DNA of 43,251 bases from Klebsormidium nitens (Eukaryota > Plantae > Klebsormidiophyceae): NCBI GenBank assembly GCA_000708835.1, contig DF237628.1, forward strand, positions 2,886 through 46,136, in the 5' to 3' direction. The first letter of the stretch is position 1; every line of letters begins with the position of its first letter. A program made the translations under genes and the position numbers. This document shows positions 1 through 22,730 of this stretch, one piece after another. A model generated the notes under the pieces. The model was given only the letters and a program-made list of their open reading frames with translations. It searched no databases and had not been told where the DNA came from.

Positions 1-2518
1 AAGGGGTCAGACGAGATGGAAGTCTGCCTATGCCCGATGACTTGATGAGGAAAAGACGCAGGTGTAGGACAGCAAAAAATGAAGTAATCAGAAACCTGAG
101 AGAACTTCAGTGACATCTTGCCAGGGCTGCAAACGTCGAAGACATGCAGCCAGAATTCAATCGACCCATAACAGAACAGCATAAGATGAAGGAACGAGCA
201 GCAAGCAACGGGCTTGGGCAAGAACTCAGACCTAGACCACAACGAGGTCCCAGATCACTTATCCATGAAGAAGTCGCTTTAGAGCGTCTGTTGACGTCGG
301 TCCAAACACTTACTTCCCCTTGACGAACTCCGCATAATTGTCTGCATTTGGCGAGCACAGCACCACCCAGCGGCCTTCACCCGGGAATTGCGTCTCGCGG
401 GGAGCTCGTCCATCTTGGAGTAGCCAGACAGAAGGGCACTTGCAGAGAGCTGTAGCCAGAGAGGACAGTCATTGCTATCGCTGGCTGATCATTGCTGGTG
501 AGCATGAGCAGAGCCCTATCACACACCACTTCGTCGATAGCAAGACCCAGAGAGAGTGCGTTGTCTTAGGTGATTACACCGTCACCTGACTTCAAGAGCA
601 AAGTGTGTTTGCATCGAGCATCAACCAACATACAAGCTTTAAAGTTATTTGAAGCCAGAAGCCAACTACACTTCGATGCCGAACAAGGGTTTCACAGTTG
701 CAATATCATGACACCTGTTTGCTTACCTCGAAGGGATCGCCAGTCAACATCGCCTTCCGAAGCCTGTTTGACATGGATTGCAGACGGATTGGAGAAATCA
801 AAGAAAAGGATGGTGTCCTTATTGATGGTGTCCGTGTACCTGCGAGGCAGACTGATAAAGTTGGGCACGTAGGGTTGGCACATAACAAGGAAGCATCTCT
901 CTCGTTGAGGAAGGCCTTGTTAGAAGCAGCGTGCTCAGCGACACAAGTCAAAGCACACAGTTACAGATTTGGCCAGCCAAGAGTGGTGTACGCGTACCTG
1001 TAGGCCACCTGTGCCCCCTGCTCTGCCAAGTGGTGCAGGAGGAGAACCGCAAAGGCAGACTTTCCGATGCCCGGGGTGCCACTCAGGACAACCGCAAAGT
1101 CGTTTCCAAGAGCCTCGAGCTTCTTCAGCACCAGGCGGTAGCACTCCCGAATTAGAATGCTGTCCTTTAGGCCTGGTGGCAATCCCTCCCTGAGCTCGGG
1201 CGGAATCTGGATGACTCCACTGGCGGTGTTCGCATGCGCGATGGACTCAGCATACTTCTGGAGCCTCTCTGGAAAAAAAAGCAAATCATCATTGTGGTGG
1301 GGACTGACCACCGGCAGATCAGACACTCTCGTGAGGATGCAAGAGTCTCCACATCAGCGAATCGCCTTTTGTGAATCGCTTTTGTGGTGGGCACTGCCCA
1401 GTGGCAAAATTTGAATTGTGCCCATGCAGAAACTCTACCACAGTCAAACAGCACCTGAAACAGCGATCAGATAGAAGACAATGCTGACAGGTGCGACAAG
1501 CGCTTCAGCACACCACGCCAACAGGTGGAGACAGGTACAAAGACTTACCCAAGACTGCAGGGTCTGTAAACCCCGCCGCTGCACACAACAGAAGCTTTCT
1601 GTCAGCAGTCCACACGCAGTGACTGGATAAGCCAACTGCAAATGCTAAGCAGGCTATGAGGTTGGAAAGAGTTTCGCTACACCGCAAAACCTTTCCACCT
1701 GCATGTTGTCATGACCCACAGAGCAACCCACCAACCTCAGGCAAACACAGATACAAAAACCCTTCTTAAGCAGCAACAATTGAGACAGATTGCCATGGCT
1801 CATTGAGCAGACACCTGAACTGCAGGCAAAGAGAGATAGAAAACCCTCTGTGCGGTGTGCCATACCACTCTCTTTGCGAAACATCGAGAAGCAGCAGGGG
1901 AATTGCCTGCAGCACAACATTGGCAGCAGAACGCCGCTCATGGTCTTTTCAAATATGTGCACTGGTTTGCTGGGCTGTTCCAAGGAGACCGCTCTCCATG
2001 CGTAAGACGACGGTAGAGATACCTGTTGTCTGCTGCAGCTTCAATTTTTCCACCTCCGCCTGCGCGAGCGCGGTCAGTCGCTGCTCCAGCGCGGCCTCCT
2101 TCTGCCGCAGCGCGGCCTTCTCCCGCTGCAAGAACTCTGTGCTCTCGCCTGCAGCCGCAGCAGTCTTGATCTGGTTCTCCACATCGTCAATCTCCTTCTC
2201 CACACGCTTGATGCTCGACTTGAGGAGCTGTGCCTCATCCTTGACCTGTTCAGCATGAGGCACGCTGTCAACCAAGTTGGAACTTCCGGGAGACTCTGCT
2301 CCATCCCGGGGAATGTCTGCTCTCGGCGAGAAACGCCTCAATCCTGACCCCACCCTGTAGTCGGAATGAAACCGGCCCAGCCTCAATCCCTCATACAGAG
2401 ATGGAGGAAGTGTCCTGAAAGCGAATCGCTGGGGCGTTGCAGGGGCAATGTCTGCCTGCCCGCGCGAACATAAAGTTTTTGCCCCAGCCACTTTGAAGAG
2501 CACTGCGGCAGACGCCAT
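1..2518 (-). CDS. Multi-exon Crinkler (CRN)/RHS-like P-loop NTPase with N-terminal coiled coil; 3' end runs off the window
   Basis: Exon near 998-1326 reads ILIRECY...VVLSGTPGIGKSAFAVLLLHHL (CRN/RHS-type Walker A context). GT-AG splicing joins AYR|YTDTINKDTILFF. A later exon reads DGRAPRETQFPGEGRWVVLCSPNADNYAEFVK (D..p...SP..y..f.K pattern), followed by LQPWQDVTEVL. The coiled-coil exon is at about 2030-2270. The start codon is uncertain. Confidence 0.65.
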
Positions 2519-4457
2519 TCACCTCACCAGTGACGTCCCGCAAAGACCAATGAATGCGGCGCCTGAGCCATTCCCCACTGCCACTCAGCCCTCGCCATCG
2601 CACTCAACTTCGATCATGATGTTGGTTGCAAAAGCTGAGGCCAGTCGCCCGAACGACCCTTGGCCCGTCCGATCGCGAGCAGCGCGCGCAAGAAGGGGCT
2701 TGCAAGGAAGAAGACTCTCGACTTCAGCATCCGAAGCGTCCAGCTGGCAGCACACTGCGGAGCTTTTTTTTTTGGCGCGCACACCAAGGGCGTTCAGAGC
2801 AAGGCGAAAGTCCTGCTTGAGTCAGCAGTCTGACTCAGGCCCTGACAAGGCCAACGCAAACAGGAGGTATTGGAAGCCCTGAACACTCAGCTCAAACACA
2901 TTCTGGAAACTCAGGCCAATGCAGCAAAGACTCAAGCAGCTTCAGTCCTGTCGCTTTGTTGGTAGCCTTCTAAAGGGTGACAATTTTCGGACAGCTAACG
3001 CAGCACTTTGGAAGGGTTAGGAAGCTTCTGCCAACGCAGCAGCCTGCCAACAAAGCAGAGGCTGCAGCTTTTTTGGATCATGCACAGTAATCGACTGAAT
3101 CCGCGTACTCATGGGATGTAAAGGGGCAATCTTTTGCTTTAATCCTTTCATTTGCAGATGAGCTTTTCCGGGACTCCCCTTCTTTTCAAATCTCACTCAT
3201 CTTTCCAAACGCCTGCGAGTATGGTCTACAGACACGCCGCCTAGAGTCGATGGTCCTTTTAGTAACCCAGATACCGCCTGCCATCATGGTAAGTCTTATG
3301 CTACTGAGACCTAGTGTAGCCTAAGCTAAGTCAACCCTGTGAAGCGCAGACTTGATGCTGACAATCAGCAGCTGAAGCTGATCAGGCTGTGAGCCTGACA
3401 GAGCTCTGGTCACATAAAGCTGGCTGGTTGCGTATGCCAGCTGAGCTGCCATGTCTTTCGACATGCACCTGCCTTGGGATTGGTGAGTGCTTTTCTGGAC
3501 AGCACTGGGGCTGGAAAGTGATTGGGGATCAGAATTGCAGACTGGGAGATGGGCGTGATGAGAGCGGAGTGACTATAAAGGCACGTGTTTTCAAAAAACG
3601 GTCCAAATATTATACTAGTGGTCAATCTCTAGTTGAGTTGCAGAGTTGCAGAGTTGCAGGATCAGCGGGGAAATGTTTGCGTCTAGTTCTGTCTAGGTCT
3701 GAACGCACTCAAGTATAGTGCAAGCTAAGATGCTCACAGGTATTCTGCTCATGTGTACAGTGATGTGTCAGAATCAGAAGGGACCCAAGGAGAGGACATC
3801 GAAGGTGCTGAGTATGCTGATCGATCTGTCGATGGATCTCAGTCTGGACAGTCACTACAAGGTTTCTTTGACGATCAAGATTCTGGCAGCATACAAGGTC
3901 CAAGCTTCTACTGGGCTCTCAACAATGAGGTTAGCGTCAACCCAGTCCAGTGGGCTTTTGGGTCCTACGAAATGACTTGCACGCACCATGTTGGCTTGAA
4001 AGTCTGTGTCTGAGATTTACACCAGGGTGTCTGCGCATTCTCTTGCAACTGCCTCGTGCAACATTGGTACCCGTTTATGCAAAACTGACCAGTGTCTTCT
4101 GCTGTCAAGCCACTTCTGGGTTTGCTGTGCTGTACAGGGTGTTTCACCCACCTCTCCGGTTGCCAACTGGTCTATCAACAGCGCTTTTAGAGAGCTGATT
4201 CCTGTATCACCGTCAAACAGATGCAAACGCAAGGTACGAACTGGATTGCGAAAAGCTGAGAGACATGAGCAACATGATGCCAGCGCAATTTGTCTCGATG
4301 CGACTTCGTTGGGTTGCTAAATCTGGTGTGCCGCTAAGGCACGCGTGCTTCGCAGCTGAAGCAATCTTGGCTTGTCATCAGGAAGGCGCCTGGTGACGCT
4401 GATTGATGGTGGACTGAAGTCCACACCGATCAGGCTTGTTGCGTGTCCTCTTTGCAG

Positions 4458-7400
4458 TCCTCCAACGGTGAAGGCGAGCGCTGCCCAGAAGGAGCTTGTC
4501 TCGAGGAGGACATTGTTGGGGTGGTATTCACAATGCGGGCGCTCGAGAGGAAGCGACGCCGTCCGATTCTCTCTCAAGAGATAGAGGAGGCGGAGGAGGA
4601 GCACGTGCCAACGCCGCAACCATTCTCACATGTGAGCCGCTCGTTGGTATGCTTGAGGAGCTCTTGTGCCCTGCAATATCCAAGAGAACTTAGGCACTCC
4701 GCCCTCTACAGGCTCATCGCGACTTTCATGTTGGCTGGGCGGAAAGTCCTGCCCCTGGTCTACACCTTGTCATTAGAATTAAGGAATCCAGACTTCTACC
4801 ATTTGCAAGGTGTAGGCCATAAGCAAGCCCGACCATACAGCCGTTGGCAAGAATGACGGTGGGCACGTGCCCGTCTCTGGTCCACACCTTGTCATTGGAA
4901 ATAAGGAATTCAGTCTTCTGTCGTCTGCAAGGTGGGCCATAAGCGAGCCCCTCCCCACAGTACGTGCCCCGCCTCTGGTCCACATCTTGTCATAGGAAAT
5001 AAGGATATCAGTCTCCTGCTATCCGCAAGGTGTAGCCCAAAGCAAGCGGTATTCGAAAATGAGGGTATGCTCGAATGCGAGTGTCCAGTGTGTGCTTCAT
5101 GCAGGTACTCGAGAGGGGCCAGGATGTGCGCTTGCGGCTTCAGGGGAACCCCGCTGAGGATCTGAGTAGCGCAGCAAGCCCACCCCCCGATGCAGAAGCT
5201 GGCAAGCACAGCGCAGCCCCCAACTTCGATCCGCCTTCTCATTCGGCGACCTGCGCTTCGGTTGGAGATGTAAGTCCCGATTGTGCAAAGACACTCAGTC
5301 TCGTCAAACTTCCAGTGTTGCACCTTGTCGATCGACCTGAGCTTACGGAATCTGTTTGGACCAGGCCATGCAAGCTCGATCCAAAGCGCAGATGGTGGGC
5401 AAATATCGGGTCCACACCTTTCATTGGGGATTGGGAACCAAGTTAATTGCCAATCGCAAGGTGTAGGCTATAAGCAAGCCCGACGAAAACCCGCGGTTCT
5501 CAGAGCCGAAAATGGGCATGCGTCATGCTTCTTGAGAACCGGGTCTACACCTTGTTATTGGAAGTAAGGAATTCAGGCTTTTGCCATCTGCAAGGTGTAG
5601 GCCACAAGCAGGCTCGACCACACCCTGCGATATTCAAAGCCGATGATGGGCACTTCCCTCTTCTTTCTGTTTTTCTCAACAGTCCACACATCGTCATTGG
5701 TGCAGACATTGAGTCTCTCCCCATCTGCAAGGTGTGGACCATATGGAAAGGGGGTTTTTGCTCGACGCTCATCATATGCGTGTCCATGTGTGCAGGAACT
5801 TGGCGTGGCAACAGGCGATGGTCATGATGTGTGCCAGCAGTCCACGGGATCCGCTGCAGGGGAGCTACATGTGAGTTGGACCATTTACTGATTCTCGATG
5901 CCGGAGGCTAGATCCGCCATCGTCTGCGCCAGGCTTAGGCAGTCTCCTTGACGCACTTGTAAGTGCTGCAAAGTAAACGTGCTCAAAAAGGCGCCTCGTC
6001 TGTGTCCCAGGTTCGTTCAGAAAAGCGAACGGCACTGCTACTCTCAGGTTCCATTCGACCACTTCGAGCCTCTTAATCGCATTGCAGTAATATTCCGTCG
6101 TCTAAAGTTGCCTCATATCTATGCCGGTTGCCCCTAAGCCCCTCGCCTTCTTCTTCTTGTGCAGTACATGGGCCCTTCCCCCGCTCCTCCGCATCCTGCC
6201 GATGAGCCTCGCTCTGCTGCTACGGAGCCCACACCTTCGGTGAGTCCACTTGCGAGGACCGCTCAGCTCCTTTTCCCACACGGCAGAGCAGTGCAAAATA
6301 AGGTACTTTAACCAGCCCGCGTGGTACAAGTGGTTGTACAAGTTCCCTTCCTCGATCCAGACAAGAGCTCGCTTGTATGGGGAGACCGTTCACTGTCAGT
6401 AGGAGGATAGGATCTGAAACGAGTTCCTTTTGGGGCTGGAGGCGCTTGCATACGTCTTGCTCAGTCCTGACCGGCCGCTTTCGACAACCTCACAAGGGAG
6501 CCGTAGGTCTTCCTCGTGGCAGTGGTCGTGCACAGCTTCAATATTTGAGCACTCACCCCTCCGCCATAGTGCTTCCCCCCAGGTTAAAGCAGCAAGGCGA
6601 TCAGAATCTTGGGTGCCAAAGGCTCGTCAAACGGTGAAGAAGAAATCACAGTGAGCTAGTCGTCCCCTCCTTTGTCATCTCGGGCTAGACTCTTGCCAGT
6701 GATCCTCGTTAGGATTCAGTCTGATCGGGTCACTGAGCCCACAGAGGCATCTTCATCCGACATAGGGACCTGGTGTCGACATAGGGACCTGGTGCATGCT
6801 TTTGTTCCCAGGGTAGCAAGCCTGTGGCTGAGGAGCTTTGGCCCGGCACTGACCTATTTCCTTCTTGCTTCACCCACAGCAAGCGTGCGAAGCCGATTTC
6901 TGCCCCAGTGGACGAGGCGGCTCGTGCAGAGATCCGGGCGGCTCGTGAGGCTCACTTCCGAACTTTGGAGGGATTGAAGCTTCAACCAAACGGGCAAGAG
7001 GTGCGAACGATTCTGGCTAACCTCGGAGTTCCGCTTGCAGCCCTTGCAGGCCCAGTTTTCAGTGTTGTGACTCGGGTTTAGCCTTGGTTTTTGTGGTTAG
7101 AGTTCCTCGCTGCCAAGGTGCAGCTTCCCGTGCACATCTCTCTGGAGATTGCTGAACTCCTTTCTGCCGTTCACCTAGATTCGACTGCGATGTTAAGCAG
7201 TCCAGATGGCCATTAACAGCCGCCACCTTAAGAACTGACGGAAACACGCGCTTGCTTCTTTTCGTAGGTGATGGCGCGGCCGATGTCCGAGGCGCAAGGA
7301 GGGGGGCATCAAGCCCCCCAAGAAGCAGTCGCGGCAGAGGCACTTGGCGAGCGCTCGTGCGTGGACGTGACGGTGGCCGAAGGCGGCGAGGAGGACCAGC

Positions 7401-10400
7401 AGGGTGGCGAGTGAGCCTTTGCTCTTGAATGACTCGTCAAGTCCGTGCCTGTGAGTGCAGGGCGTCTGATCATCATCAAAGACGTTCTCAGAACAGCAAA
7501 ACGTCCTCACGATGATCGCCAAGGTTATCACTCGCATACTTCCGATCGTCGCAGGCACCTCGTTGCGGCGGTGCGACAGTCCGTCCAGCACAGCCCATGG
7601 GAGGCGCTCAGGCAGGCTGAGGTGAGGCTAACGGTTATTAGAGAAGGCACGTGCTACGTTGTTAGAGGCTTTCATAGATTCATCAACGGGAAGATTTGCG
7701 GGACTGGCCTGCAGGGCCAGGCGGGTGTCAGGACCGTTCATGAGGGGTAAGGCATGCGGGGTCGGGTAATGCATCAATATCAGCGTCAGGCTTGGGTCCC
7801 ATTTGTTGGGTCAGACTAGGACGCAAGCTCGAGCCAGAGCGCGGATGGGCATGGTAGGCACGTGCCTTGCCTCTGGTCCACACCCTGTCGTTAGAAGTAA
7901 GGAACCAGCCTTTTGCCATCTGCAAGGTGTAGGCCATAAGCCAGCCCGGCCACACAGCGGTTGGCAGAATCGATAGTAGGCACGTGCCCTGCCTCTGGTC
8001 CACACCTTGTCTTTAGAAATAAGGAACCAAGCCCTCTGCCACTCGCAAGGTGTAGGCCAAATTAAGCGGTATGAGGGTAGGCTCGGATGCGAATGCCAAA
8101 TTCCGTGTGGACTTTACGCAGGAACTCGAGAGGCGCCAGGATGCGCGCCAGCGGCTCCAAGGGACCCTCGCCGCGAATTCCAGTGACGCATCAAGCCGGT
8201 CCCCCGTTGCAGAAGCCGGCGAGCCCAGCGCGGTCCCCAACTTCGATGCGCGTTCTCGACTCGCGACCTGCACTTCAATTGAAGATGTAAGTTCGGGTCG
8301 TGCAAAGGCATACGATCCCGCCAAACTCTTTGCCAAACTCTTTGCTTGACCTGAGCTACAAAGCCTGGCTGAACCATGCGATGCAAGCTCATCGACAGCG
8401 CAGATGGTGGGTGAGGGCCTGTCTCTCCCTTTAAGAGTTCGGTCTACACCTTGTCATTGGAAATTAGGAATTCAGCTTTTCGCCATCTGCAGGGTGTAGG
8501 CCATAAGCAAAGTCCGACCACGGCGCGCTCGGCAGACAACGAGCACGCAGCTAGTCTCTTCTCGTTGCCTGCTTGTTCGAAACCATGGTTCACGCCCCAA
8601 CTCTGGTATCAATGGGTCGCGTTTTTGGTCAGCTGCAAGGTGTGAACCAGAAGAAGCAATCTTCGAACTCTCGGCGCACGATGACAGGATCAAGTGCTCA
8701 CCTGTTCTGAACATGCACGCGTGTATGTGCAGGATTGTGGGGCAAGAGTGGACGAGAATCAGAGTACGCGCCAGCAACTCCCGGAGATTGCCGCTGAGGA
8801 TGTGATCAGCGCAATCACCCTGCAGAGTGCCGTGCGCCAATCGCTCCGGGGGATTGCCGTTGGAGTTGTCAGCCGCGCAGCAAGGCCGTCCTCTGTTGTG
8901 GATGCTGACCATCCCAGCATAGCCCCAAACCGAAACGAGCCTTCCCTCGAAGATGTAAGTTTCAACTGCTCGAAAAACGCATTGATGACTGATCGGATCA
9001 GGCATCACATTCTCTGTGTATGCGCGAAGTCCAAAGAGATCCTCTTCCTCCTTGTGTTTAGGCTTAATGAAGGCCTTCAGGATCCGCCTCCAAGAGATTG
9101 GTCACGTAGGGAGTGACTGTGCTCTGATCCCTGTCCTCGAAGCCGCCATCCTCTTTGAACTCCTCCACCAAGGGCGGCCAATCCAATACACTCGTATCAC
9201 CGCACCGGCTTGTTGGATGCAAGCTCGAGTCTGAGCCGGATGGCTATGGTATGCATGCGCCTCCGGTCTACACCTTGTCATTGGAAGTAAGAAACCAGTC
9301 TTCTGCCATCTGCAAGGTGTAGGCCATAAGCGAGCCCCTCCAAAACGAACGTGCCCGCCTCTGGTTCATATCTGGTCCATACCTTGTCATTAGTTCTAAG
9401 GAACCAGTCTTCTGCCATCTGCAAGGTGTAGGCCACAGCAAAGGGTGTTCTGAAAATCGAGGGCAGGCACGTTTGTGAGTGTTTGATTCCAGCATGCGCA
9501 TTTCTGCAGAAATCTGAGAGAAGTCAGGATGCGCGCCAGCGGCTCCAAGGGATCCCCTCCGACGATCTCAGCAGCGCAGCGAGCCTGCCCCCCGGTGCAG
9601 AAGCTAACGAGCCCAGCGCTCCCCCCGACTTCGACCCGCCTGCTCGGTTTGCGACCTTGGCTTCAGTTGAAGCTGTAAGTCCCGGTTGTGCAGAGACATT
9701 TCCATCCCGTTTGCACCTTGTCAATGGACATTCATGAGCTTCTGTAACCTGTCTGGGCCCTGAGATGCAAGCTCGATCGAAAGCGCAGAAAGTGGACGAG
9801 GTCTGTCGCTTCATATAGGAATTGGGAGTTGGTCCACACCTTGTCAATGGAAATGAAGAATCCAGTCTTTCACCCTTTGCAAGGTGTAGGCCAGAAGCAA
9901 GCCCGACCCTGGCATGCTCAGCACACAGTGAGCACGTACTTGTCGACGGGCAGCTAGCCTCTTCTCATTGTCGGCTCATTCAAACCTATGTTTTACGCCC
10001 TAATCTCGGCACCAATGAATACCGTTCAGCTGCAAGGTATGGACACAAGGAACCAAGCTTTGAAACTGCGGCGCATGTTTGCAGATCCGAGTGATGACTC
10101 GCTCTGACCGTGTATGCGTGCATGTGCAGGATCCTGAGGCAGGACGGGGCGAGGGCCACGACGAGCGCCAGCAGCTCCAGGCGATCGCAGATGAGGATGT
10201 CAGCCGCGCAACCACCCCGCCCCTCGATATAATGGCCGGCCAACCCAGCACAGCCCCCAACCAAAACGAGCCTCCTCGATCTGGGAACGAGGCTTCGATC
10301 GAAGATGTAAGTCTCAACCACTCAGAAGACGTTTACTGATGACCGATCAGATCAAAACGCATATGCGCCGCCTCTGGTCCACACCCTGTCCTTGGAAATA

Positions 10401-10797
10401 AGGAACCCAGTCTTTTGCCATCCGCAAGGTGTAGGCCATAAGCAAACCCGACAACACAAATGATTGGCAGAATTGCTGATGGGCACGTGTCCTGCCCCCG
10501 GTCCACACCCTGTCATTAGAAATCAGGAACCCAGCCTTAGCCATCCGCAAGGTGTAGGCCAACGCAAGCTCTTTTCGGAAGATGAGGGCAGGCTCGAAAG
10601 CAAGTTTCTGATTTCCAGCGTGCGCTTCGCAGGAAGTTGAGGGGAGCCAGGACGAGCGCCAGCAGCTCCGGGGAATTGCCGCTCAAGATTTCAGCTGCGC
10701 ACCCATATCGCCCCCTGTTGTGGATGCCGGCCAACCCAGCACAGCCCCCACCCGGAACGACACTTCTCGACCCCGAGATCAGGCTTTCGTCGAAGAT
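4458..10797 (+). other. Series of phase-0 exon cassettes, the probable N-terminal extension of the AEP-helicase gene
   Basis: AG...GT-bounded stop-free segments with lengths divisible by 3: 4458-4631, 5105-5269, 5796-5870, 6165-6239, 8122-8286, 8733-8954, 9510-9674, 10130-10306, 10633-10797. Four are exactly 165 nt and homologous (QDxRQxLQG...P..D..|GTAAGT). The AEP exon also begins in phase 0 (cag|GAT at 11284). Splicing is inferred, not shown. Confidence 0.55.
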
Positions 10798-13225
10798 GTA
10801 AGTCTAAACCCTCAGAACACGTTTACTGATGCCCAATGTGATCACATGTTTATGCGAAGTGGAGACAGATTTTCTTTGTCAAATAGCACGTCGTTGTCTT
10901 CTCCATTGTGGACAGGGACGTCTTCAGGATCCGTTTCCACAAGATAGGTAACATAGGTAGGGAGAGAGCCCGGATCCCGGTCCTCGAAGTCGCCATCCTC
11001 TGCGAACCCCTCGAACAAGGGCGGCCAACCGTTTTTGCATCACCGCGCTTGCCTATCTGACGAAGGTCGTCGATCTGCCCAAGCTGCTTCACGGAGCAGT
11101 CTTGTCCTGTCGCAAAGCATTCGGTCGTTGCGGTCAAGCTGAGTCAGATTTGGCACCAGTACCAGCTGTTGCGGTTGGAGACATGAGATTCTGCCTTTCT
11201 TCAGATTAGCGCTTCTTTAAATACGATTCCCGCAGCCGCTGTATGTCTCCCAGCAGTGACACGGTCTGGTTTCTTTCGTGCAGGATGCCTCATCAGTGGA
11301 CCCTCGCCTGTGCCCCGGCGAGATTGTCGTCCACAGCGAGCACGACGGGAAGTTGCTGACCGTCAAGAAGGCCGAGCTAGGCACCTTCCTCTTCGCCAAG
11401 CGCAAGTTCGACGACAAGGTCGACTACCAGGACGCGAAGAACGGGCCGCAGGGTTGCTGCCGTCGTTACGGCGAAGTGCTCGGCCATCAGGTCGAGATCC
11501 GGCGCCTGCGTCCCTCCCGGGAGTTCGGGTCTTACCCGGATTGGCCCTCAGCCTATCCCAAACTGCGCGGCGAGCCTCATCTGGAGGAGGCCATCAAAGC
11601 GGGGTGTCCCTGCAAGCCGTACCTGGATCTGGAACGAGACGGGGGCCTGCCGGATGGGGAGACCCTCGAGACGGTCATTGACGCCTTCGAGGGGGCGATC
11701 ACGGGCATCTTCGAATCGGAATACGGCCAGGAGCTCTCAAAGGAAGCCTTCAACTGGATCCCCTGTGATTATGGGCCGGGTGGCAAGTTTAGCCTGCACC
11801 TGGTCATCTCCTCCCACTCCCCCCAGTTTGTCTACCGCTCCAACCTGGCGCCCCCAGCGGACCCCCAAGGAGCGGGGCATCTCGCGAGAAAGCTCAGCCA
11901 GCTCTTGCCCGACCGCTACGCCGAGCTCATCGATCAATCGGTCTACACCAGAAACCGGGGGATCCGACTCCCCTTCTGTTCCAAACCCTCTAATCCTCGC
12001 AGCCGCCTGATTCCCTTGGACGAGAGTAAGCCGTACGCGGATGCCTGCATCACCTGGTTCGATGACCACGTGCAAACGATCAATGTCCCCGACGTCCTGT
12101 TCCGAGCAGTGCGCTCTCGCGAGAGGCCAGAGAATTCAAGCCACCTAAACCCCAAAGCCGCGAGCATGTATGAGGTGCAGCGGTGCACGGAGCTCATCCA
12201 GAATCTGCACCCAACGGCGTACCGCAGGGGGTCGGCGAACTCGCTGAACTACAGCTGGCACGATCGGAGCGAGCCGTGCTACTCGGGTAACGTGCATGCC
12301 GGGGGGCGGGACATCCTCTGTGTCGCGGATCGCGAGAGGAACGCCGTGTTCGCGGTGTGCAGCAGCGAGCGGTTCGATCCGGAGACGGGTGTGTGCTGCA
12401 AGGACCTGCCGGCCAAGTACCTTGGGCCGTACTGGGTGGACAACAAGACCTGGAAGGATGGTGCTGTGGAGATCGACATGGAGTACTTGGATCGGGACCC
12501 GTTGGCTGCCGCACCCATGAATCTGGCGCTGATCCGCGCCGGGGTCAGTCCTCTGACCGACAAGGTCGTCTTCAACGACATCGTGAACAAGTGAGGCCGT
12601 GCACTCATGCTTACAAGCCGTCGACGTGGCAGTGTTGCAGTGTCGCTTTTGTCAGTGCCGCGAGTCTGGCCGCTGACCAGTCCCTCACTTGAAGATTCTG
12701 GTAAACGGGTCCACACCTTGTCGTAGGAATGAAAGAATCCAGGCTTTTGCCACTTGCAAGGTGTAGGCCAGGTGCTTTGTGGGTATTTCTACAAAGAAGC
12801 GGTTGCTGGGCCGATTTAGGAAAGGCTTGTGGGTATAAAATTGGCTTGAATGAGTGGCTGGAAAGTGCGAACGGGCCCACACATCGTTCTTGGGATCTAA
12901 GGAACACAGTCATTCATCACCGGCAAAATGTAGTCCACTCTGACGATGAGAACAGGCTGCTTGATCAGTCATGGAAGCAGCTTTGTGAATTTGGAGTGGC
13001 TGGAATAAGTGGCTGGAACGTTTGAACGGGCCCACACCTTGTCATTGGAATTAAGGAATCCGGTCTTTCGCCATTTGCAAGGTGTAGGCCACAGGCAAAC
13101 TAGACCGCACCACCGCGACTGGCAAAACTGACACATGGGTACGTGGGCACATGCCCCGCCTCTGGTCTACACCCTGTCATTGGATATAATGGATCCAGGC
13201 TTTTGCCTTTTGCAAGGTGTAGGCC
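4757..13225 (+). repeat. Family of about 17 co-oriented 60-62 bp palindromic repeats (GGYCYACACCYTG-N35-36-CAAGGTGTAGGCC)
   Basis: Copies start at 4757, 4879, 4977, 5409, 5542, 5681 (degenerate), 7875, 7997, 8441, 9265, 9374, 9831, 10376, 10500, 12708, 13029, 13164. Right-arm-only remnants lie near 8637 and 10033. The arms are 13-14 bp inverted repeats. Confidence 0.95.
11284..12590 (+). CDS. Archaeo-eukaryotic primase (AEP/PrimPol, NCLDV/herpes-like) exon of a primase-helicase fusion
   Basis: Motif I YLDLE, motif II FSLHLVI and motif III IDQSVYTRNRGIRLP, plus a Cys/His-rich C-terminal region. The ORF stop coincides with a donor (AACAA|GTGAGG at 12590/12591). Splicing to the acceptor at 13318/13319 is in frame (N-K-W-L-E-G-R-Y). 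Confidence 0.88.
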
Positions 13226-13318
13226 ATATGTGAGGACAGGGATTCTACCGTTTCACTTTTGCTGGTTGACCGGCTTCGAAAGATGGAATCAAGTGTTCTG
13301 TCTCACCCCTTCGTGCAG

Positions 13319-15457
13319 GTGGCTCGAGGGCCGGTACAAGGCTCTGCCGATCAGGAGTCCCATGGGGAGCGGCAAAAGCACGCTTCTCGCGGCTCTTCTC
13401 GCCGAGGTCTCCAGATTCAAGAAGGTCTGCATGATCACTTACCGCCGCACGCAAGCTCTCGATGCGGCGAGCAAGCACCAGGCGTTCTCCCACTACGAAG
13501 ATCTCAAGCAGGCGGATGGACGTATGCTCGGCGATCGCTTCATCCCCCCTCTCGCCGACCGGGAGCTCCATCCCCGCGTCATCGTCCAGCTCGACAGCCT
13601 GCCCGGGCTGATCCCTGAAGACGACGAAGACGCCCCCGCGTTTGACCTACTCGTTCTTGACGAGAGCGAGTCGATTCTGGCGCATTTCTCGGCGGACACG
13701 CTTCGCGAGAGGCACAGAGTCATTCAGCTCCTTGTCGAGATGATGAGAAGAGCGCGGCGGATCGTCTGTCTGGACGGGCACTTGGGGCAACGGACGTACG
13801 AGTTCCTCACGATGAACGAGATATCATACTCCCCCGTGGTGATCAACAAGCATGCTCCTGAGAGGCCCCTCGAGATTGAGTTCCTCCAGGGCAAGAACGA
13901 AGGGCTTGCCAAGTGGGAGGGGGCGATTTTCGAGGCGCTGGGGGCTGGTCGCAACGTCTTTGTTGCGAGCATGTCCTCGGAAAAAGCGCAAGAGTTGGGG
14001 GCGACGGTCGTGGAGCGGGGTCTCGTCGAGGGTGACCAGGTCCTCATCATAACTCGCCACTCGGACGGTGCAGTCAAACGAGGGCTGCAGGATGTGAACA
14101 GGCAGTGGCGGAAACGGCTCGTGATCATCAGCCCCACGGTCGAAGCAGGCGTGGATTTCAACCAGGACTGGTTCCATCAGATGTTCTTGTACGTCTGCCA
14201 GAAGAGTACGCACCCGCGGGGACTCGACCAGATGAAGGGGCGTGTTCGGAAGTTGGCGAATCCACGGGTCTTGTGTTATGTCCAGGAGGGCATCTGGCTG
14301 CCAGTCGAACCGGGGCCATCAGGGGGTGGGTCCTCGAGGGAGACGAGCAGGTCGGGTAGCAAGGCAAGGCTGGGGGTCGAAGAGACCTACCAGTGGTTCC
14401 TCAATCAGAATTGCAGGGGCGGGCTGAACTGTGTGCATCCGATAACCCGACTTCTCGCTCACAACGAGAAGGAGATCTTCAACGGGCAGACGCATTTCTG
14501 CGAGGAGTTCACAGACTTGCTGCAGGCGGACGGACACGTCATCGTCAAGAACGTTTGCGTTGACGAAGAGGCGGTCGAAGTGAACGCGGGCCCATCAGAA
14601 GAAGGGGGGCGTGGGGGCAAGTATCTTCTGGAAGAGATGATCAGCGCCCCAAACATCTCGCATGCCCAATTCGTCGACATCGAACGGCGTTCTCGAAAGT
14701 ACGAAGATCGCCCAGGGGAACCGTGCAGATGGAGAAATTTCAGCTAGCACGGTTCTACGACGTCCCGTACCTCAGCGAGGAGTTCTTGCGAACCTTCGGG
14801 CCGAAGCCGATCCATGCCCTCGACTTCCTGGAGCAGGTGGTCGACGAAGACTTCAAGTACGACAGAAACGAGATCGGGCGGCACATGTACCCGCCTCAGA
14901 TGACAGCCATGGCCAGGGAGCTCTTGACGGTCATGGGATTCGAGCACGCGCTCGATGCTGCCCACGAGACCGATACTCTTAGCACAATGAGATCGCGTCT
15001 GGCCGGAACGGCCTTCTTTCGGAATTACTCGGAGAACGTCAAGCTGTTCCATCATCGAGCAGCTAGCGTGTCTGACGTTCTGGTTTATCAGAAGACGGCC
15101 ACGATTGCTCTGAACCACGTCTTCTCGGCGTTAGGGTTGCATCTCGAGGCAAAGAAGCTCGGCAGATTGGAGGTGAGGGATGTGCAGAGGGCGGAGAATG
15201 GAAACCGGAAACGGCTGTACCGATACGGAGGCTGGTTCCTGTCGCGAGAACCTCTGCGGACGACTCGGCCCGTGCAAGGGCCCCCGGGGGTGAACCTGAT
15301 GTGCCAATTGTTCAAGCTTCGTCTGGCGGATTCGGAGACTCTCAGGGAGAGGGTTCCGCCGGCTCTGCGGGAGTACTTGGACGGGATTCCGTTCCAGTGG
15401 CCGGAACTCGTCCAGCACAGGAGATGTGGTATTATTGTGGGTCCAGGAGAGGAGTAG
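13319..15457 (+). pseudogene. UL9-like replication origin-binding SF2 helicase exon, with one apparent frameshift at about 14720
   Basis: SPMGSGKST (Walker A), ITYRR, LLVLDESES (Walker B), IISPTVEAGVDF and DQMKGRVR are motifs typical of herpes UL9/NCLDV origin-binding proteins. The reading frame shifts at GAA CCG TG CAG ATG, continuing as QMEKFQLARFY to the stop at 15457. Confidence 0.82.
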
Positions 15458-15518
15458 AATGTCGTCGACAAGAACCCAAGTCTGAAATGCAAGTCAAGTG
15501 ATTATAGGCTACCCTGTA

Positions 15519-15825
15519 GTCCGCACGTTGCAAATGATATTTGGCGATACTTTCTTGGGAATTGTGGATGGTGTAAAGTATTGGGGATGGTGTGGATCAA
15601 CTTTATAGCTTGCTTGTTGTCTTGTATCATTGTAGTCTTGTTGGTGGTACTCACAATAATCGGTCGTCCTGTGCTGTAGTTGATGATAGGAGATGCGCAT
15701 TCATACAATGATTTCTGCTTGCCTTTTGCCTTTGTTGGCAGCAACTATAACAGGGGTTTGCTTGTGGTCTATACTGTGCAAGTCGTCTAGGACTAAATCC
15801 TAACAATCAATTGCAACGTGTGGAC
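15519..15825. repeat. 15-bp inverted repeat pair flanking a 277-bp spacer; arms related to the 62-bp palindrome family
   Basis: GTCCGCACGTTGCAA at 15519-15533 and TTGCAACGTGTGGAC at 15811-15825, with 1 mismatch. Confidence 0.7.
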
Positions 15826-17867: not shown

Positions 17868-17891
17868 TAACAACGAGGCGGTTTCACGGCG

Positions 17892-18935
17892 ATGGAGTCC
17901 AACTTCGAAGCAGAGGTACGCAGAAAACTGAAGGTCCAATCTCCGGATAAGGCTCTCCGTGGAGCTCCGCCAAACAGATCAGATTCAACAGTGTCTGTCT
18001 ACATCAGGCAACTTAAAACCGTATATGCGGCTGGAGACTTTGGACCGGACGTGATGAACGGTCTCGACTGGATCGAGGACCACGAGCATGTGATTTCAAC
18101 CATAGAGAGTCTCACGTCGCGTGACGGCAAGCTTCTTAGATCATTGACGAAGAGTAATTATGCAGCCCCTTTTGCTATTCTTGCTTCTGGAGAGACGCAA
18201 TCAGCTTACTCGAAGTACATGCAGAGGATGAAGCCAACCGAGGAGGAGCTCGATCATTCTATGCAGAGGAAGACGCCGAAAGAAGTCGACAATTGGATTC
18301 CTTGGTCCGAAGTCTTAGAGAAGCGATCGGAACTTGATGACAAGATCAGTCGCTATGTCGTGCCAAGATTCCATAAGAAGGAACGCTTAGATCGCCATGA
18401 TAAGCAGCTGGTGATGGACCATCTGATCCTTTCCCTCTACACGATGCCGCTAGGACCTCTACGGAATGAGTACGCGGAATGCATTTTTTTGATGAGGGAA
18501 CACGAAAACGATTGCGTTGCGATCAAACCGGGTGACATCAACGTCGTCGAGTTGAACGACGATCCCAAGAAGTGTTTCTTTCACATTGGTCGACACAAGA
18601 CTCTCGAAAAGGATGGCGTTCGTTGCCTTGAAATTCCCGAAGATCTCGTAAAGGTTATACTCAGATCCTTCAATCTGATTCCTCGAAAATACTTGATTCT
18701 CAAGAGGCATTATCTCGTCTGGAAAGATGAACCGATATCGAATTTCACCGTAGTTCTCAATGATCTTGGTCAGCGCCATTTCGGTAGAAACCTCAGCTGC
18801 ACTTTGCTTCGACACATCTCACATACTGAACAGAGTCCGAAGTTGATGTCCCGTGGTGAAGTGAGAGCAAAGGCGCAATACATGGGCCATAGCATGAGGA
18901 CTGCGGATGAATTGTATAACAGACGATTCGAGTGA
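17892..18935 (+). CDS. Tyrosine recombinase/integrase, Polinton-like virus/NCLDV type, 347 aa, intact
   Basis: Catalytic set: R in PLRNEY, K in GRHKT, R in TLLRH (first His of HxxR replaced), H in YMGHS and Y in ELYNR. The N-terminal core-binding region contains STVSVYIRQLK. Confidence 0.88.
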   Translation: MESNFEAEVRRKLKVQSPDKALRGAPPNRSDSTVSVYIRQLKTVYAAGDFGPDVMNGLDWIEDHEHVISTIESLTSRDGKLLRSLTKSNYAAPFAILASGETQSAYSKYMQRMKPTEEELDHSMQRKTPKEVDNWIPWSEVLEKRSELDDKISRYVVPRFHKKERLDRHDKQLVMDHLILSLYTMPLGPLRNEYAECIFLMREHENDCVAIKPGDINVVELNDDPKKCFFHIGRHKTLEKDGVRCLEIPEDLVKVILRSFNLIPRKYLILKRHYLVWKDEPISNFTVVLNDLGQRHFGRNLSCTLLRHISHTEQSPKLMSRGEVRAKAQYMGHSMRTADELYNRRFE

Positions 18936-19273: not shown

Positions 19274-19384
19274 CGAACGAGGCTTCACAAGATCCCGAAC
19301 AAGCGCCGCGTTCTTTTTCGACAAAAATTTTCTGGGGTTGAAACTTATAGGGGGCTCTTGACCCTTCTTCGGTCTTTGAAAAAC

Positions 19385-21390: not shown

Positions 21391-21540
21391 GAGTACACAT
21401 TAATGGCGGGCGTGAATACCAAAAAGGTGTCTTTCTGAAGTCATTCTGGAGGCATTCACGTGAACTTCTTTTACTCCCTGAATGAAAGGGTGCGCAGGCA
21501 GCTATACTCACCTGCCATCCTCTTCGACCATTCCCATGCC

Positions 21541-22730
21541 TTCAAACATTCAGGATTCAGATACGGTCTGAATCCGCCATGAATGAATGCATGTAAGTGC
21601 GCTCGANNNNNNNNNNNNNNNNNNNNNNNNNNNNNNNNNNNNNNNNNNNNNNNNNNNNNNNNNNNNNNNNNNNNNNNNNNNNNNNNNNNNNNNNNNNNNN
21701 NNNNNNNNNNNNNNNNNNNNNNNNNNNNNNNNNNNNNNNNNNNNNNNNNNNNNNNNNNNNNNNNNNNNNNNNNNNNNNNNNNNNNNNNNNNNNNNNNNNN
21801 NNNNNNNNNNNNNNNNNNNNNNNNNNNNNNNNNNNNNNNNNNNNNNNNNNNNNNNNNNNNNNNNNNNNNNNNNNNNNNNNNNNNNNNNNNNNNNNNNNNN
21901 NNNNNNNNNNNNNNNNNNNNNNNNNNNNNNNNNNNNNNNNNNNNNNNNNNNNNNNNNNNNNNNNNNNNNNNNNNNNNNNNNNNNNNNNNNNNNNNNNNNN
22001 NNNNNNNNNNNNNNNNNNNNNNNNNNNNNNNNNNNNNNNNNNNNNNNNNNNNNNNNNNNNNNNNNNNNNNNNNNNNNNNNNNNNNNNNNNNNNNNNNNNN
22101 NNNNNNNNNNNNNNNNNNNNNNNNNNNNNNNNNNNNNNNNNNNNNNNNNNNNNNNNNNNNNNNNNNNNNNNNNNNNNNNNNNNNNNNNNNNNNNNNNNNN
22201 NNNNNNNNNNNNNNNNNNNNNNNNNNNNNNNNNNNNNNNNNNNNNNNNNNNNNNNNNNNNNNNNNNNNNNNNNNNNNNNNNNNNNNNNNNNNNNNNNNNN
22301 NNNNNNNNNNNNNNNNNCTCGAACCACATAAGTGCCCAGTGTCCCAGCTCGTATGCTTTCAAACATTCAGGATTCAGGTACGGCCTGAATCCGCCATGAA
22401 TGAACGCATGTAAGTACGCTCGCTGCACACTTGAAGTGCCCAGAGTTCAACTCATGCGCCTTCAAACATTCAGGATTCAGGTACGGTCTGAATCCGCCAT
22501 GAATGAACGCATGTAAGCGGGCTCGAACCACACAAGTGCCCAGTGTCCCAGCTCATGCGCCTTCAAACATTCAGGATTCAGGTACGGCCTGAATGCGGCG
22601 TGAATGAATGAATGAGTCCAAGTGCGCTCGCTGCACACAAGTGCCCCGAGTCCCGGGTCGCATGCCTTCAAACATTCAGGATTCAGGTACGGTCTGAATC
22701 CGGCATGAATGAATGCATCTGAGAGTTGCT
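21541..22730 (+). repeat. Left subterminal tandem array (unit about 103 bp) with GGATTCAG-N7-CTGAATCC palindromes
   Basis: TTCAAACATTCAGGATTCAG recurs at 21541, 22358, 22461, 22562 and 22667. The array spans the N gap. Confidence 0.9.
21607..22317. other. Assembly gap (711 N)
   Basis: Run of N flanked on both sides by the same tandem repeat unit. Confidence 1.

Follow-up and report, generated by a model that had tools for sequence, protein, structure and literature searches.

Imperfect palindromes in the introns of a Klebsormidium nitens primase-helicase gene: possible sites for a UL9-like origin-binding domain

What are the short palindromes that recur in the introns of a Klebsormidium nitens primase-helicase gene, and what might recognise them? 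In the window (the whole 43,251-nucleotide stretch of DNA that was analysed), we identified 17 co-oriented imperfect palindromes of 60-62 bp and three decayed copies, all on the + strand. These units span positions 4757-13225 and the rest of the window is free of them, in agreement with an earlier note on this DNA that had counted about 17. Their arms, GGTCYACACCTTG and CAAGGTGTAGGCC, are 13 nt each (14 if a fixed T.G pair is counted), differ from one another at fixed positions and enclose a core of 34-36 nt. The core has an A+T content of 57%, compared with 48% for the unit-bearing introns overall. Ten units are 62 nt long, five are 61 nt and two are 60 nt, a length that is fixed although the neighbouring intron alignment is gap-rich. 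Sixteen units were recovered by pairing each left arm with a right arm 50-75 nt away; the 17th (4879-4938) has a right arm that is 2 nt short. With two mismatches tolerated, the right-arm word GCAAGGTGTAGGCC has 21 matches in the window, all within 4757-13225 (16 on the + strand, which are right arms, and 5 on the - strand, which are left arms read backwards). Shuffled sequences gave an expectation of 0.27 matches and reached 21 in 0 of 100 shuffles. At up to three mismatches, just two unpaired right-arm-like words, at 15826 and 40325, occur beyond this span.

The units are located in an expressed, spliced primase-helicase gene (4136-15454, + strand), the 5' end of which lies further upstream. 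GT..AG joints in three RNA-type contig sets from three studies (X4, X9 and X14) define at least 16 exons; the DNA-type set X1 lacks such joints. The joined exons maintain an open reading frame of 1505 aa with a stop at 14744.

All 17 units fall within eight introns of this one gene. The intron at 4632-5104 contains units 1 (4757-4818, 62 nt), 2 (4879-4938, 60 nt) and 3 (4977-5038, 62 nt). The intron at 5270-5795 contains units 4 (5409-5469, 61 nt), 5 (5542-5603, 62 nt) and 6 (5681-5740, 60 nt), the last of which has a variant right arm, GGTGTGGACC, that pairs perfectly with its own left arm. Units 7 (7875-7935, 61 nt) and 8 (7997-8058, 62 nt) are in the intron at 7620-8119, and unit 9 (8441-8502, 62 nt) shares the intron at 8287-8732 with a decayed unit (8586-8649) in which both arms are altered and 11 bp are still paired. 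Units 10 (9265-9325, 61 nt) and 11 (9374-9434, 61 nt) are assigned to an intron at 8955-9509 and unit 12 (9831-9892, 62 nt) to an intron at 9675-10129, in both cases from repeat-exon homology and the unbroken reading frame. Module alignment and folding identify a second decayed unit (9990-10050) as the positional homologue of 8586-8649. Units 13 (10376-10437, 62 nt) and 14 (10500-10560, 61 nt) are in the intron at 10307-10632. The intron at 12591-13318 contains units 15 (12708-12769), 16 (13029-13090) and 17 (13164-13225), each of 62 nt, as well as the third decayed unit (12875-12936); unit 16 is also present with identical flanks in a contig of organism C. The earlier note had placed every palindrome outside the exons and three of them between the primase and helicase parts. 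The splice joints bear this out, with 14 of the 17 units in directly shown introns, three in inferred introns, and units 15-17 (plus a decayed one) between the two parts. In all eight introns the last unit, decayed ones included, stops 55-93 nt ahead of the 3' splice site.

The gene product is of the mimivirus R8/UL9 type, comprising disordered repeat exons, an AEP-like primase part, an SF2 helicase and a UL9 origin-binding-domain-like C-terminal domain. Spliced contigs and homologues support the intron-rich primase/origin-binding-helicase model that had been proposed. Joints and translations reveal a repeat exon of 165 nt (5105-5269, + strand) and paralogous repeat exons, also on the + strand, at 8120-8286, 8733-8954, 9510-9674 (inferred), 10130-10306 (start inferred) and 10633-10797. 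The exon at 11284-12590 (+ strand) encodes a sequence 67-71% identical to K. nitens proteins P0001-P0004, and its closest named clusters have AEP_C962R and Herpes_UL52 (score 0.95). A Pfam search with this exon returned no match and human PrimPol matched at just E = 0.33; the cluster similarities hint that the part preceding the helicase is an AEP primase. The exon at 13319-14744 (+ strand), which runs to an in-frame stop, matches Pfam Herpes_ori_bp (E = 3.2e-21) and, in the PDB, four distinct UL9 chain sequences over the helicase domain only (E = 2e-9 to 4e-9). These matches identify a UL9-type SF2 helicase in the predicted product.

A 1-nt frameshift near 14720, evident from comparison with P0013, P0002 and P0003, puts the C-terminal domain (14723-15454, + strand) in a separate frame; P0013, a relative that is 81% identical, lacks the frameshift. 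Both DNA-type and RNA-type contigs match the window at this position, and the product of this gene copy would therefore lack the domain. Modelled alone (pLDDT 78), the domain has one match at Z >= 5 among 48,161 solved chains, HSV-1 UL9 residues 547-832 on oriS DNA (Z 5.3, 175 aligned residues, rmsd 7.5 Å; runner-up Z 3.7), a score to be read against the tool's remark that unrelated models commonly have a best Z of 7-8. In BFVD it is matched best by giant-virus proteins, either SF2 helicases or 'replication origin-binding proteins' (E = 1.4e-4, 8.6e-4 and 1.6e-3), and HHV-6 UL9 matches at E = 0.04. Foldseek against the PDB gave zero matches at E <= 0.001, and sequence and profile searches of the PDB with this domain did not reach UL9. 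The structural models tentatively suggest that the domain has the fold of the UL9 origin-binding domain.

The units multiplied by tandem and module duplication along with their flanks, not by insertion. Self-comparison and alignment identified four diverged repeat modules of 1.1-1.4 kb (~4740-5800, 7800-9214, 9200-10365 and 10355-11100, + strand; 65-81% identity), all of which combine one or two repeat exons with 2-6 units. Modules two to four are in tandem, and non-repeat exons separate the first from the second. Within introns, the units have a period of 98-167 bp. When a 401-bp two-unit stretch was compared with the 108,136 contigs of X1, 46 contigs matched some part of it at >=80% likeness, one of them being a second copy of the entire stretch; 15 of the 17 window units also reach >=80% likeness to the query unit. 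The 103-Mb source assembly holds only some tens of unit copies. Metagenome and viral collections yielded 47 pattern matches, none of which (0/47) has full arms. The earlier note had considered an ordinary MITE, with hundreds of dispersed copies and target-site duplications. We found some tens of copies and no target-site duplications at unit flanks: the units are not an ordinary MITE.

Several comparisons show that the units have changed less than the DNA around them. When homologous columns are compared between the four modules, left arms are 91% identical (175/193), right arms 96% (182/189), cores 75% (390/521), repeat exons 69% (768/1117) and other intron sequence 58% (1443/2485). Fisher tests distinguish the arms from the intron (p = 2e-49) and from the exons (p = 6e-26), and the core from the intron (p = 3e-13). 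Over all unit pairs, the arms are 87% and 93% alike, whereas the 40-nt flanks are 49-53% alike. No modelled pair (0/21) has changes in both partners, and shuffled sequences pair at least as well. Of the 17 units, 11 have an uncompensated C.A mismatch at arm position 5 and 4 have one at position 11. What is conserved in the arms appears to be their sequence, not their pairing. We conclude that the units probably represent a functional cis element restricted to this gene lineage, and their greater constancy than the gene's own repeat exons suggests that they may be docking sites for the family's origin-binding domain.

We therefore tentatively favour, at a probability of roughly 0.38, the reading in which this protein family's origin-binding domain recognises the units as its cognate sites in double-stranded DNA, and in which the units have an oriS-like layout. 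The family's UL9-like C-terminal domain would bind both inverted boxes of a unit at once, with a dimer of an intact family member seating one C-terminal domain on each arm. The better conserved right arm would be the stronger box, and the mildly A+T-richer core of 34-36 bp would be the bent or opened stretch, as in herpes simplex oriS. Occupancy might start DNA synthesis, making the unit an origin, or might merely tune transcription of the gene, making it an autoregulatory site or a sink. The earlier proposal of origin iterons for the encoded origin-binding protein leads on circumstantial grounds, because the family has a UL9-like C-terminal domain, the units are lineage-private and the arms are constrained without covariation; what connects protein and unit is neighbourhood and layout. 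The DNA-site reading is weakened because this gene copy is frameshifted ahead of the C-terminal domain, because the core (75% identity, 57% A+T) is too conserved for a mere spacer, and because several features suit an RNA reading at least as well. There is no sign of autonomous replication at this locus, and the gene, with its 16 or more exons, has the expression of a resident nuclear gene. In a crude screen of 53 giant-virus loci with helicase homologues, recurrent short-range inverted repeats appeared in one, an A+T-rich contig, and nothing there was comparable. The earlier note had spoken of an undescribed eukaryotic system; our literature search found no description, and the claim to a new system is one that we do not make.

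The main rival, unlikely on balance though well ahead of the readings that follow it, is that the units form hairpins in sense-strand intron RNA, with a 13-14-bp stem and partly kept inner stems. Such hairpins could steer how these long introns with their repeats are spliced or processed, or the introns could release them as small or structured RNAs, as in intronic RNA clusters. All 17 units are intronic and oriented as the gene, and the last-unit position ahead of the 3' splice site would suit a role in RNA. Non-Watson-Crick states occupy 51 of 224 arm cells, and G.U accounts for 32 of the 51 on the sense strand vs 16 on the antisense. The mean sense fold is -22.5 kcal/mol vs -20.4 for the antisense (z -3.4 vs -2.7), and the 11-bp stem of the decayed unit at 8586-8649 survives changes in both arms. 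Hairpin RNA genes have arms more conserved than the middle and a middle more conserved than the flanks, which is the profile observed here, and the units are better kept than the host exons as well. The lack of compensatory change among the 21 pairs argues against pairing as the conserved feature, however, and a C.A mismatch inside the stem is the commonest state (11/17 units). An Rfam search over 4000-14000 at E <= 1 returned nothing save one chance-level SECIS match elsewhere, no C/D or H/ACA boxes were seen by eye, and the arms are not continued by a lower stem on which Dicer- or Drosha-type processing could act. Few contigs cover unspliced introns (depth 10 vs ~650 for exons in X4). Adjacent repeat exons are spliced together in contigs (8286>8733 and 10306>10633), which indicates that the units do not impose mutually exclusive splicing.

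If a protein reads the DNA, it could instead be an unrelated host transcription factor dimer, with the units as intronic enhancer or silencer modules and the primase-helicase uninvolved; we regard this as improbable. The constraint pattern would apply equally, the units are arrayed in repeated modules, and 7 of the 17 units have an ACGTG word in the 30 nt upstream of them, four times as a GGCACGTG-type palindrome. One GGGCACGTGCCC-type palindrome (4862-4873) is ~5-10 nt upstream of a left arm, and others are near 7857, 7979 and 10482. On this reading, a bZIP or bHLH factor would read these neighbouring CACGTG palindromes. A host factor should have its sites at many genes, but there are only some tens of copies, those seen share module flanks, and the tools used matched no known motif. 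We give a similarly low chance to a low-copy selfish foldback or MITE-like element, or an intronic minisatellite, that is useless to the gene and keeps its arms solely because a transposase or repair process requires them. The short inverted arms, small size and intronic place would fit. Three other introns contain blocks 72-76% identical to a ~200-bp two-unit block of the non-module intron 12591-13318, so units can move or be copied inside the gene. Module number also seemingly varies between gene copies, and in one spliced contig a repeat exon resembling 8831-8954 separates exons 5105-5269 and 5796-5870. The co-duplicated flanks without target-site duplications and the low copy number count against this reading, and neutral decay of dead copies cannot explain arms at 91-96% in an intron at 58% after duplication. 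The window contains no transposase with matching ends, and the KDZ-type ORFs at 39.6-41.7 kb lack such arms in their vicinity. It is very improbable that the units are integron-attC-like sites for a tyrosine recombinase, the other option in the earlier note, although they are co-oriented arrays of ~60-bp imperfect palindromes and a tyrosine-recombinase-like ORF (17871-18932) lies 4.6 kb downstream. The nearest Atlas clusters to this ORF (score 0.98) are Preplasmiviricota proteins, and in one cluster at 0.97, 16% of members carry Phage_integrase. The ORF itself has no Pfam match and looks like a polinton-like-virus recombinase. It lies in a block with a G+C of 0.45-0.51 vs 0.54-0.60, adjacent to its own Prim-Pol/D5_N gene, and therefore belongs to a separate polinton-like element. 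Helicase exons separate it from the nearest unit, no unit flanks the element or occurs past 13225, and splicing removes the units from a single continuous gene. DNA contigs show no unit-unit joints, although rare events are invisible in contigs. Least probable of all are remnants of a minus-strand repeat-protein gene, a reading suggested by recurring minus-strand peptides such as GLAYGLHLADGK and FLISNDKVWT with a period of ~40 codons. The peptide halves are in different frames within the 62-nt units, many copies contain stop codons, and none of 13 minus-strand ORFs matched Pfam at E <= 10. An 87-aa ORF found no match of longer or similar length among 5.8 billion clusters, and a 13-nt inverted repeat in each blade would be coincidental.

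The reading of the units as DNA sites for the family's origin-binding domain draws on two known systems. An excerpt of PMC2373305 describes AEP fused to a UL9-like helicase in mimivirus R8 and in an Ectocarpus genomic copy, and the Klebsormidium gene product matches the R8 architecture. An excerpt of PMC13483431 describes oriS as Box I and Box II flanking an A+T-rich spacer, with a UL9 homodimer required. The left arm agrees with the Box I oligo given there at 9 of 13 positions, which is near chance given the offsets, arms and strands available. As a lead only, all four differences from that oligo are transitions, and the orientation toward the spacer is alike. In layout, HSV oriS, as the excerpt presents it, places two boxes around an A+T-rich spacer, and the Klebsormidium units place two inverted arms around a mildly A+T-richer core.

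We identified 21 matches to the right-arm word GCAAGGTGTAGGCC (up to 2 mismatches) in the 43,251-base window, where 0.27 are expected; none of 100 shuffles reached this number. All 21 matches fall within 4757-13225, and beyond this interval the window contains merely two unpaired arm-like words at up to 3 mismatches. Pairing of arms yields 16 units, and a 17th (4879-4938) has a right arm that is two bases short. All 17 units lie on the + strand and measure 62 nt (10 units), 61 nt (5 units) or 60 nt (2 units). Each has two arms of 13-14 nt, GGTCYACACCTTG and CAAGGTGTAGGCC, which are 85-92% complementary among the pairs listed. The arms flank a core of 34-36 nt that shows a mild excess of A+T (57%, compared with 48% in the host introns). 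This arrangement, inverted boxes on both sides of a fixed-length spacer, is the layout of oriS-type origins. Three decayed units are located at 8586-8649, 9990-10050 and 12875-12936. The array of about 17 co-oriented palindromes that an earlier note had read from this DNA is thus real, and its copies are indeed absent from the rest of the window.

The gene that hosts the units is spliced and expressed. We aligned contigs from three studies (sets X4, X9 and X14; the RNA type of these sets, and of X13, is a software guess) to positions 4000-15600 at 95% likeness. GT..AG joints are present in all three sets and missing from X1, a DNA-type contig set of 103 Mb that contains 94% of the words of the stretch and from which the window probably derives. 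Joints among those listed are 4231>4456, 4631>5105, 5269>5796, 5870>6165, 6238>6582, 6650>6880, 6998>7266, 7410>7555, 7619>8120, 8286>8733, 10306>10633, 10797>11284 and 12590>13319. Exons spliced at the listed joints form one open frame, and the addition of exons 9510-9674 and 10130-10306, which are homologous to the repeat exons, extends this to a 1505-codon frame with a stop at 14744. The primase-helicase gene has at least 16 exons. Contigs join adjacent repeat exons, and we therefore rejected mutually exclusive splicing of these exons.

Fourteen of the 17 units lie in directly shown introns: three each in 4632-5104, 5270-5795 and 12591-13318, two each in 7620-8119 and 10307-10632, and one in 8287-8732. 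We infer that the units at 9265, 9374 and 9831 also lie within introns. The proposal that the palindromes occupy an intron-rich primase/origin-binding-helicase gene but avoid its exons is borne out, as is the placement of three of them between the AEP and helicase exons (intron 12591-13318). Seven introns have no unit (4232-4455, 5871-6164, 6239-6581, 6651-6879, 6999-7265, 7411-7554 and 10798-11283). Unit-bearing introns contain one to three intact units, or two to four when decayed units are counted. The distance between the 5' splice site and the first unit is 69-310 nt, and that between the last unit, decayed ones included, and the 3' splice site is 55-93 nt. The genome that carries the units is most likely the nuclear genome of the alga.

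Several contigs depart from the window's gene model. Spliced contigs of X4 and X14 carry an exon that resembles 8831-8954, with another start, between exons 5105-5269 and 5796-5870. The exon order of the window cannot give this arrangement, which we therefore read as a second expressed gene copy that differs in the number or order of its repeat modules. We rejected a circular-RNA back-splice as the source of the joint 8954>5796, which 'goes back' along the window, because the exon start in the same contigs differs from that of the window. Joint 5865>6170, with ten other letters between its sides, occurs beside 5870>6165 in all three RNA-type sets; we attribute it to an allele or paralogue, or else to a micro-exon used alternatively.

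The closest proteins to the gene product are four K. nitens proteins, one of which is named 'replication origin binding protein'. They share 55-62% identity with the helicase exon and about 70% with the preceding exon. Exon 13319-14744 encodes a UL9-type SF2 helicase (Herpes_ori_bp, Pfam accession PF02399, E = 3.2e-21, 75.6 bits, cut-off 20). A sequence search of the PDB recovered four distinct sequences of UL9 chains (E = 2e-9 to 4e-9); the alignments span residues 89-235 and 343-412 of 854 and are confined to the helicase domain. Helicase homologues on giant-virus contigs share 20-31% identity.

A Pfam search gave no match for exon 11284-12590. Its nearest named ESM Atlas clusters carry AEP_C962R and Herpes_UL52 (score 0.95, 204 of 256 shared features), and it has a very weak match to human PrimPol (E = 0.33). 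On this basis, the exon likely encodes an AEP primase. By eye, it also contains DxE, sxH and D..Y..R..R stretches that resemble catalytic motifs. A structure model of the AEP exon, built from six sequences, has a pLDDT of 41 and is too poor for searching. The N-terminus consists of 600 residues encoded by low-complexity repeat exons and is not shared by the four K. nitens relatives.

Relatives extend about 245 residues past the helicase. The counterpart in the window (14723-15454) is open in another frame, and a 1-nt frameshift near 14720 (14696-14760), relative to P0002 and P0003 of the K. nitens proteins and to P0013, directly precedes this C-terminal domain. The frame after the frameshift is open for 244 codons. 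DNA-type and RNA-type contigs both match the window at this position, and P0013 (JGI/IMG), from a contig of up to 46.6 kb, is 81% identical and does not have the frameshift; a search of viral contigs for a relative of P0013 returned nothing. The frameshift could be a recent disabling change, could give a truncated isoform or could reflect programmed frameshifting.

Modelled alone from 17 sequences, the C-terminal domain reaches a pLDDT of 78. Foldseek found nothing in the PDB at E <= 0.001 for this model, and neither phmmer nor a profile search of PDB sequences led to UL9. An all-against-all structure search (VIA-align, 48,161 chains) gave a sole match at Z >= 5, HSV-1 UL9 on oriS DNA (residues 547-832; 175 aligned residues, rmsd 7.5 A), with a Z of 5.3 that is low by the tool's own yardstick; the next match has a Z of 3.7. 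The predicted fold nonetheless suggests the expected domain in the expected order. In BFVD, a library of viral structures, the best matches (E = 1.4e-4, 8.6e-4 and 1.6e-3) are SF2 helicases or 'replication origin-binding proteins' of giant viruses, and proteins of Bodo saltans virus, Hyperionvirus and Indivirus are among the matches; HHV-6 UL9 matches at E = 0.04.

Conservation of the arms is our strongest result. The region comprises four diverged modules of 1.1-1.4 kb with 65-81% identity, each containing two to six units and one or two repeat exons with conserved bounds (CAG|G and GAT|GTAAGT). In homologous columns of the four modules, identity is 58% in other intron sequence (1443/2485), 69% in repeat exons (768/1117), 75% in the core (390/521), 91% in the left arm (175/193) and 96% in the right arm (182/189). 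These differences are significant by Fisher tests (arms vs intron, p = 2e-49; arms vs exons, p = 6e-26; core vs intron, p = 3e-13). Across all unit pairs, 40-nt flanks are 49-53% alike, compared with 87% and 93% for the arms. Unit length is held at 60-62 nt despite a gap-rich alignment of the surrounding intron. The units, and above all their arms, are thus under selection or subject to a process that acts on exactly these 13-nt words.

Inside introns, units and linkers recur with a period of 98-167 bp. A two-unit block in intron 12591-13318, which is not part of a module, shares 72-76% identity with blocks from three further introns. Inspection of the flanks revealed no target-site duplication at any of the 17 units, and the flanks are homologous between copies. 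These observations show that copies arose from duplication of unit-bearing DNA and not from independent insertion.

Related copies are few. With a 401-bp probe that contains two units (10250-10650), we identified 46 of 108,136 X1 contigs matching any part at 80% likeness. In one contig the complete probe stretch recurs as a second copy, with 55 differences and 8 gaps. Since 15 of the 17 window units are at least 80% like the probe unit, this locus and the second copy can explain most of these 46 matches. At 95% likeness, extra copies carry arms similar to those of the window, different cores and upstream flanks that resemble module flanks. The count points to tens of copies, not hundreds. It is approximate, since identical repeats merge within contigs and diverged copies may escape the aligner. 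The earlier note had named hundreds of dispersed copies with target-site duplications as the mark of an ordinary MITE, and this pattern was not found.

Further contig sources also contain unit-like sequence. A contig of organism C carries the unit at 13029 with the window's own flanks, and organism D contigs contain 18 matching pieces. An exact pattern scan matched 46 metagenome loci and one IMG/VR locus once each; none of the 47 has full arms, and we therefore take them as chance matches. A crude and weak exact-10-mer screen of 53 giant-virus loci with helicase homologues found recurrent short-range inverted repeats solely at one A+T-rich locus (L014), and nothing comparable to the units.

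Downstream of the gene, the window changes character. ORF 17871-18932, the putative tyrosine recombinase, has no Pfam match and no PDB sequence match. Its nearest Atlas clusters (0.98) are Preplasmiviricota proteins, and in one further cluster, which scores 0.97, 16% of the members carry Phage_integrase. A Prim-Pol/D5_N ORF (19274-21400) shares its block, which has a G+C of 0.45-0.51, compared with 0.54-0.60 in the primase-helicase gene. We assign ORF 17871-18932 to a polinton-like element of its own and consider it unlikely to partner with the units.

The lower-G+C block as a whole (15500-37000) has features of polinton-like viruses, contains DUF3987 fragments at 29479-30670 (-) and probably represents one or two integrated elements. 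Two further tandem arrays occur at 21535-22718 (across an N gap at 21607-22317) and at 34741-35204, with periods of 105 and 115 bp. Each repeat in both arrays holds its own palindrome, built on CATTCAGG...CCTGAATG, and the second array has a perfect 16+16-nt palindrome centred on CACGTG. These arrays, 12 kb apart, may mark ends or origins of a polinton-like element. At 33490-33529, telomere-like words of plant type (TTTAGGG / CCCTAAA) form a perfect inverted repeat of 14 nt. Elsewhere in the window, ORFs at 39649-41697 (-) have a weak KDZ-type transposase CxC4 cysteine cluster (E = 0.0017) and adjoin a 501-aa ORF without a family, and an ORF fragment at 964-1353 (-) contains an nSTAND3 / AAA_16-type P-loop that scores below the Pfam cut-off (25.5 bits, cut-off 27.2).

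The units are better kept in their arms than the neighbouring repeat exons, and a function is therefore called for. We tentatively favor double-stranded DNA sites, predicted to be read by the UL9-like C-terminal domain of this protein family, and assign this reading a probability of roughly 0.38. It is suggested by selection that acts on sequence rather than pairing, by two inverted boxes at a fixed distance with one better kept, and by the restriction of the sites to the gene lineage whose own product is a UL9-type protein with a predicted UL9-like DNA-binding-domain fold. The oriS precedent, as set out in the available text of PMC13483431, argues in the same direction. The weak fold score and the frameshift in this copy count against it, as do the conserved core (75%), the RNA-compatible features of the units, the lack of comparable arrays at the 53 giant-virus loci and the ordinary nuclear-gene look of the locus. 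Sense-RNA hairpins are a possible, if somewhat unlikely, alternative. Non-Watson-Crick cells of the arms (51 of 224) include G.U in 32 on the sense strand and 16 on the antisense strand, and sense folds are somewhat more stable (mean -22.5 kcal/mol, z -3.4, vs -20.4 kcal/mol, z -2.7; -9.7 and -9.3 with DNA parameters). In the decayed unit at 8586-8649, both arms have changed and an 11-bp stem is retained, within a single lineage. Yet an uncompensated C.A mismatch occurs at arm position 5 in 11 of the 17 units and at position 11 in 4, and the two arms deviate from perfect symmetry at fixed positions. RNAalifold draws a 13-bp stem with no pair changed on both sides, a covariation test of little power as 6 of the 13 stem pairs are invariant. 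When two inner stems are included (21 pairs), 88% of cells pair, which is not above shuffles, and compensatory changes again number 0. Rfam cmscan of 4000-14000 matched no unit at E <= 1.

Other explanations seem less probable still. CACGTG palindromes neighbour 7 of the 17 units, and the units could serve an unrelated host factor together with them, which we consider unlikely. We are similarly doubtful of a selfish foldback or satellite without function, which the conservation of the arms argues against. Recombination sites, the second role that the earlier note had offered, are very improbable: the presumed recombinase ORF is 4.6 kb distant, within a block that differs in G+C and has its own replication gene, and no unit occurs past 13225. 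Minus-strand coding remains can practically be dismissed, as none of 13 ORFs has a Pfam match at E <= 10 and no protein relative, longer or of similar length, was found.

If the units are DNA sites, they might fire as origins or merely regulate the gene. A fuller scenario, which we regard as a long shot, is that in a streptophyte alga an endogenised giant-virus primase/OBP helicase still works with its own origin. The introns would then carry oriS-like arrays that are bound and fired by intact family members, and firing would cause local re-replication and thereby give rise to the tandem modules. In that case, the arm would be the first recognition sequence known for an origin-binding protein of the mimivirus R8 type.

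The gene type itself is already known. AEP/UL9-like fusions have been described, and the gene thus belongs to an established type of gene derived from viruses, in this case expressed and rich in introns. Among the literature matches listed for Klebsormidium and for Herpes_ori_bp/UL9-like helicases, judged mostly from listings, we found no description of this Klebsormidium gene or its units, nor of conserved palindromes arrayed within introns of a gene of this type. A well-expressed cellular copy with a private, strongly constrained family of inverted boxes thus offers a candidate recognition sequence for giant-virus-type origin-binding proteins. If the sites are bound, this would be, to our knowledge, the first case of an initiator-type protein with its sites in spliceosomal introns of the nuclear gene that encodes it. 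Bound sites would also provide a handle on how endogenised viral replication genes become tamed or reused. If the units instead act as RNA, they would constitute a new lineage-specific family of intronic hairpins in a streptophyte alga.

Known systems resemble the locus in different respects. At HSV oriS, Box I and Box II flank an A+T-rich spacer and are read by a homodimer of UL9 (PMC13483431). The units share inverted boxes around a spacer, here with one box better kept than the other, and the gene encodes a UL9-type helicase; the model of the domain that comes after it has the UL9 origin-binding domain as its best match. The left arm equals the Box I oligo given there at 9 of 13 positions, with four transitions and the same spacer-ward orientation, a likeness that is near chance once offsets, arms and strands are allowed for and that we treat as a lead only. 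Unlike oriS, which is present in one to three copies, the units number 17 and sit inside introns of the initiator-like gene, and their spacer is 34-36 bp with 57% A+T and thus not a pure A+T run. The protein adds a likely AEP primase part and a long disordered N-terminus that HSV UL9 does not have, and the units are candidate binding sites and candidate origins.

Mimivirus R8 and a copy in the Ectocarpus genome have been described as fusions of an AEP to a UL9-like helicase, in the same domain order (PMC2373305). In the available portions of two papers, no DNA site is given for the origin-binding proteins of giant viruses (mimivirus R1/R8 type). In contrast to the R8 type, the gene identified here has at least 16 exons, is spliced and expressed, and has a lineage-specific N-terminus of repeat exons. 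Baculovirus hr regions and the iterons of phage and plasmid initiator genes reside in intergenic or coding DNA of viral and plasmid genomes and have proven origin or enhancer activity. These systems likewise feature imperfect palindromes in direct repeats of about 100 bp, and sites in or next to the gene for their own binding protein, a relationship that is a candidate one here. The units differ in occupying spliceosomal introns of a cellular locus and in having a candidate activity where that of the others is proven.

MITEs and introners share short inverted ends, small size and intronic location with the units. The units have terminal inverted repeats as MITEs do, but they lack target-site duplications and many dispersed copies and so do not fit an ordinary MITE; copies number in the tens, their flanks are co-duplicated and their arms are conserved far beyond neutral expectation. 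They do not fit introners either, because the units neither make one intron each nor abut splice sites: introns hold several units, and splice sites are 55-310 nt away. Intronic RNA clusters, such as snoRNA hosts and polycistronic miRNAs, also contain intronic units that are kept better than the host exons. They occur, like the units, in tandem sense-oriented copies, and the units match them further in a predicted hairpin of pre-miRNA size with arms kept better than the loop. The units differ from such clusters in having no Rfam match, snoRNA boxes or basal stem and, in a test of little power, no covariation.
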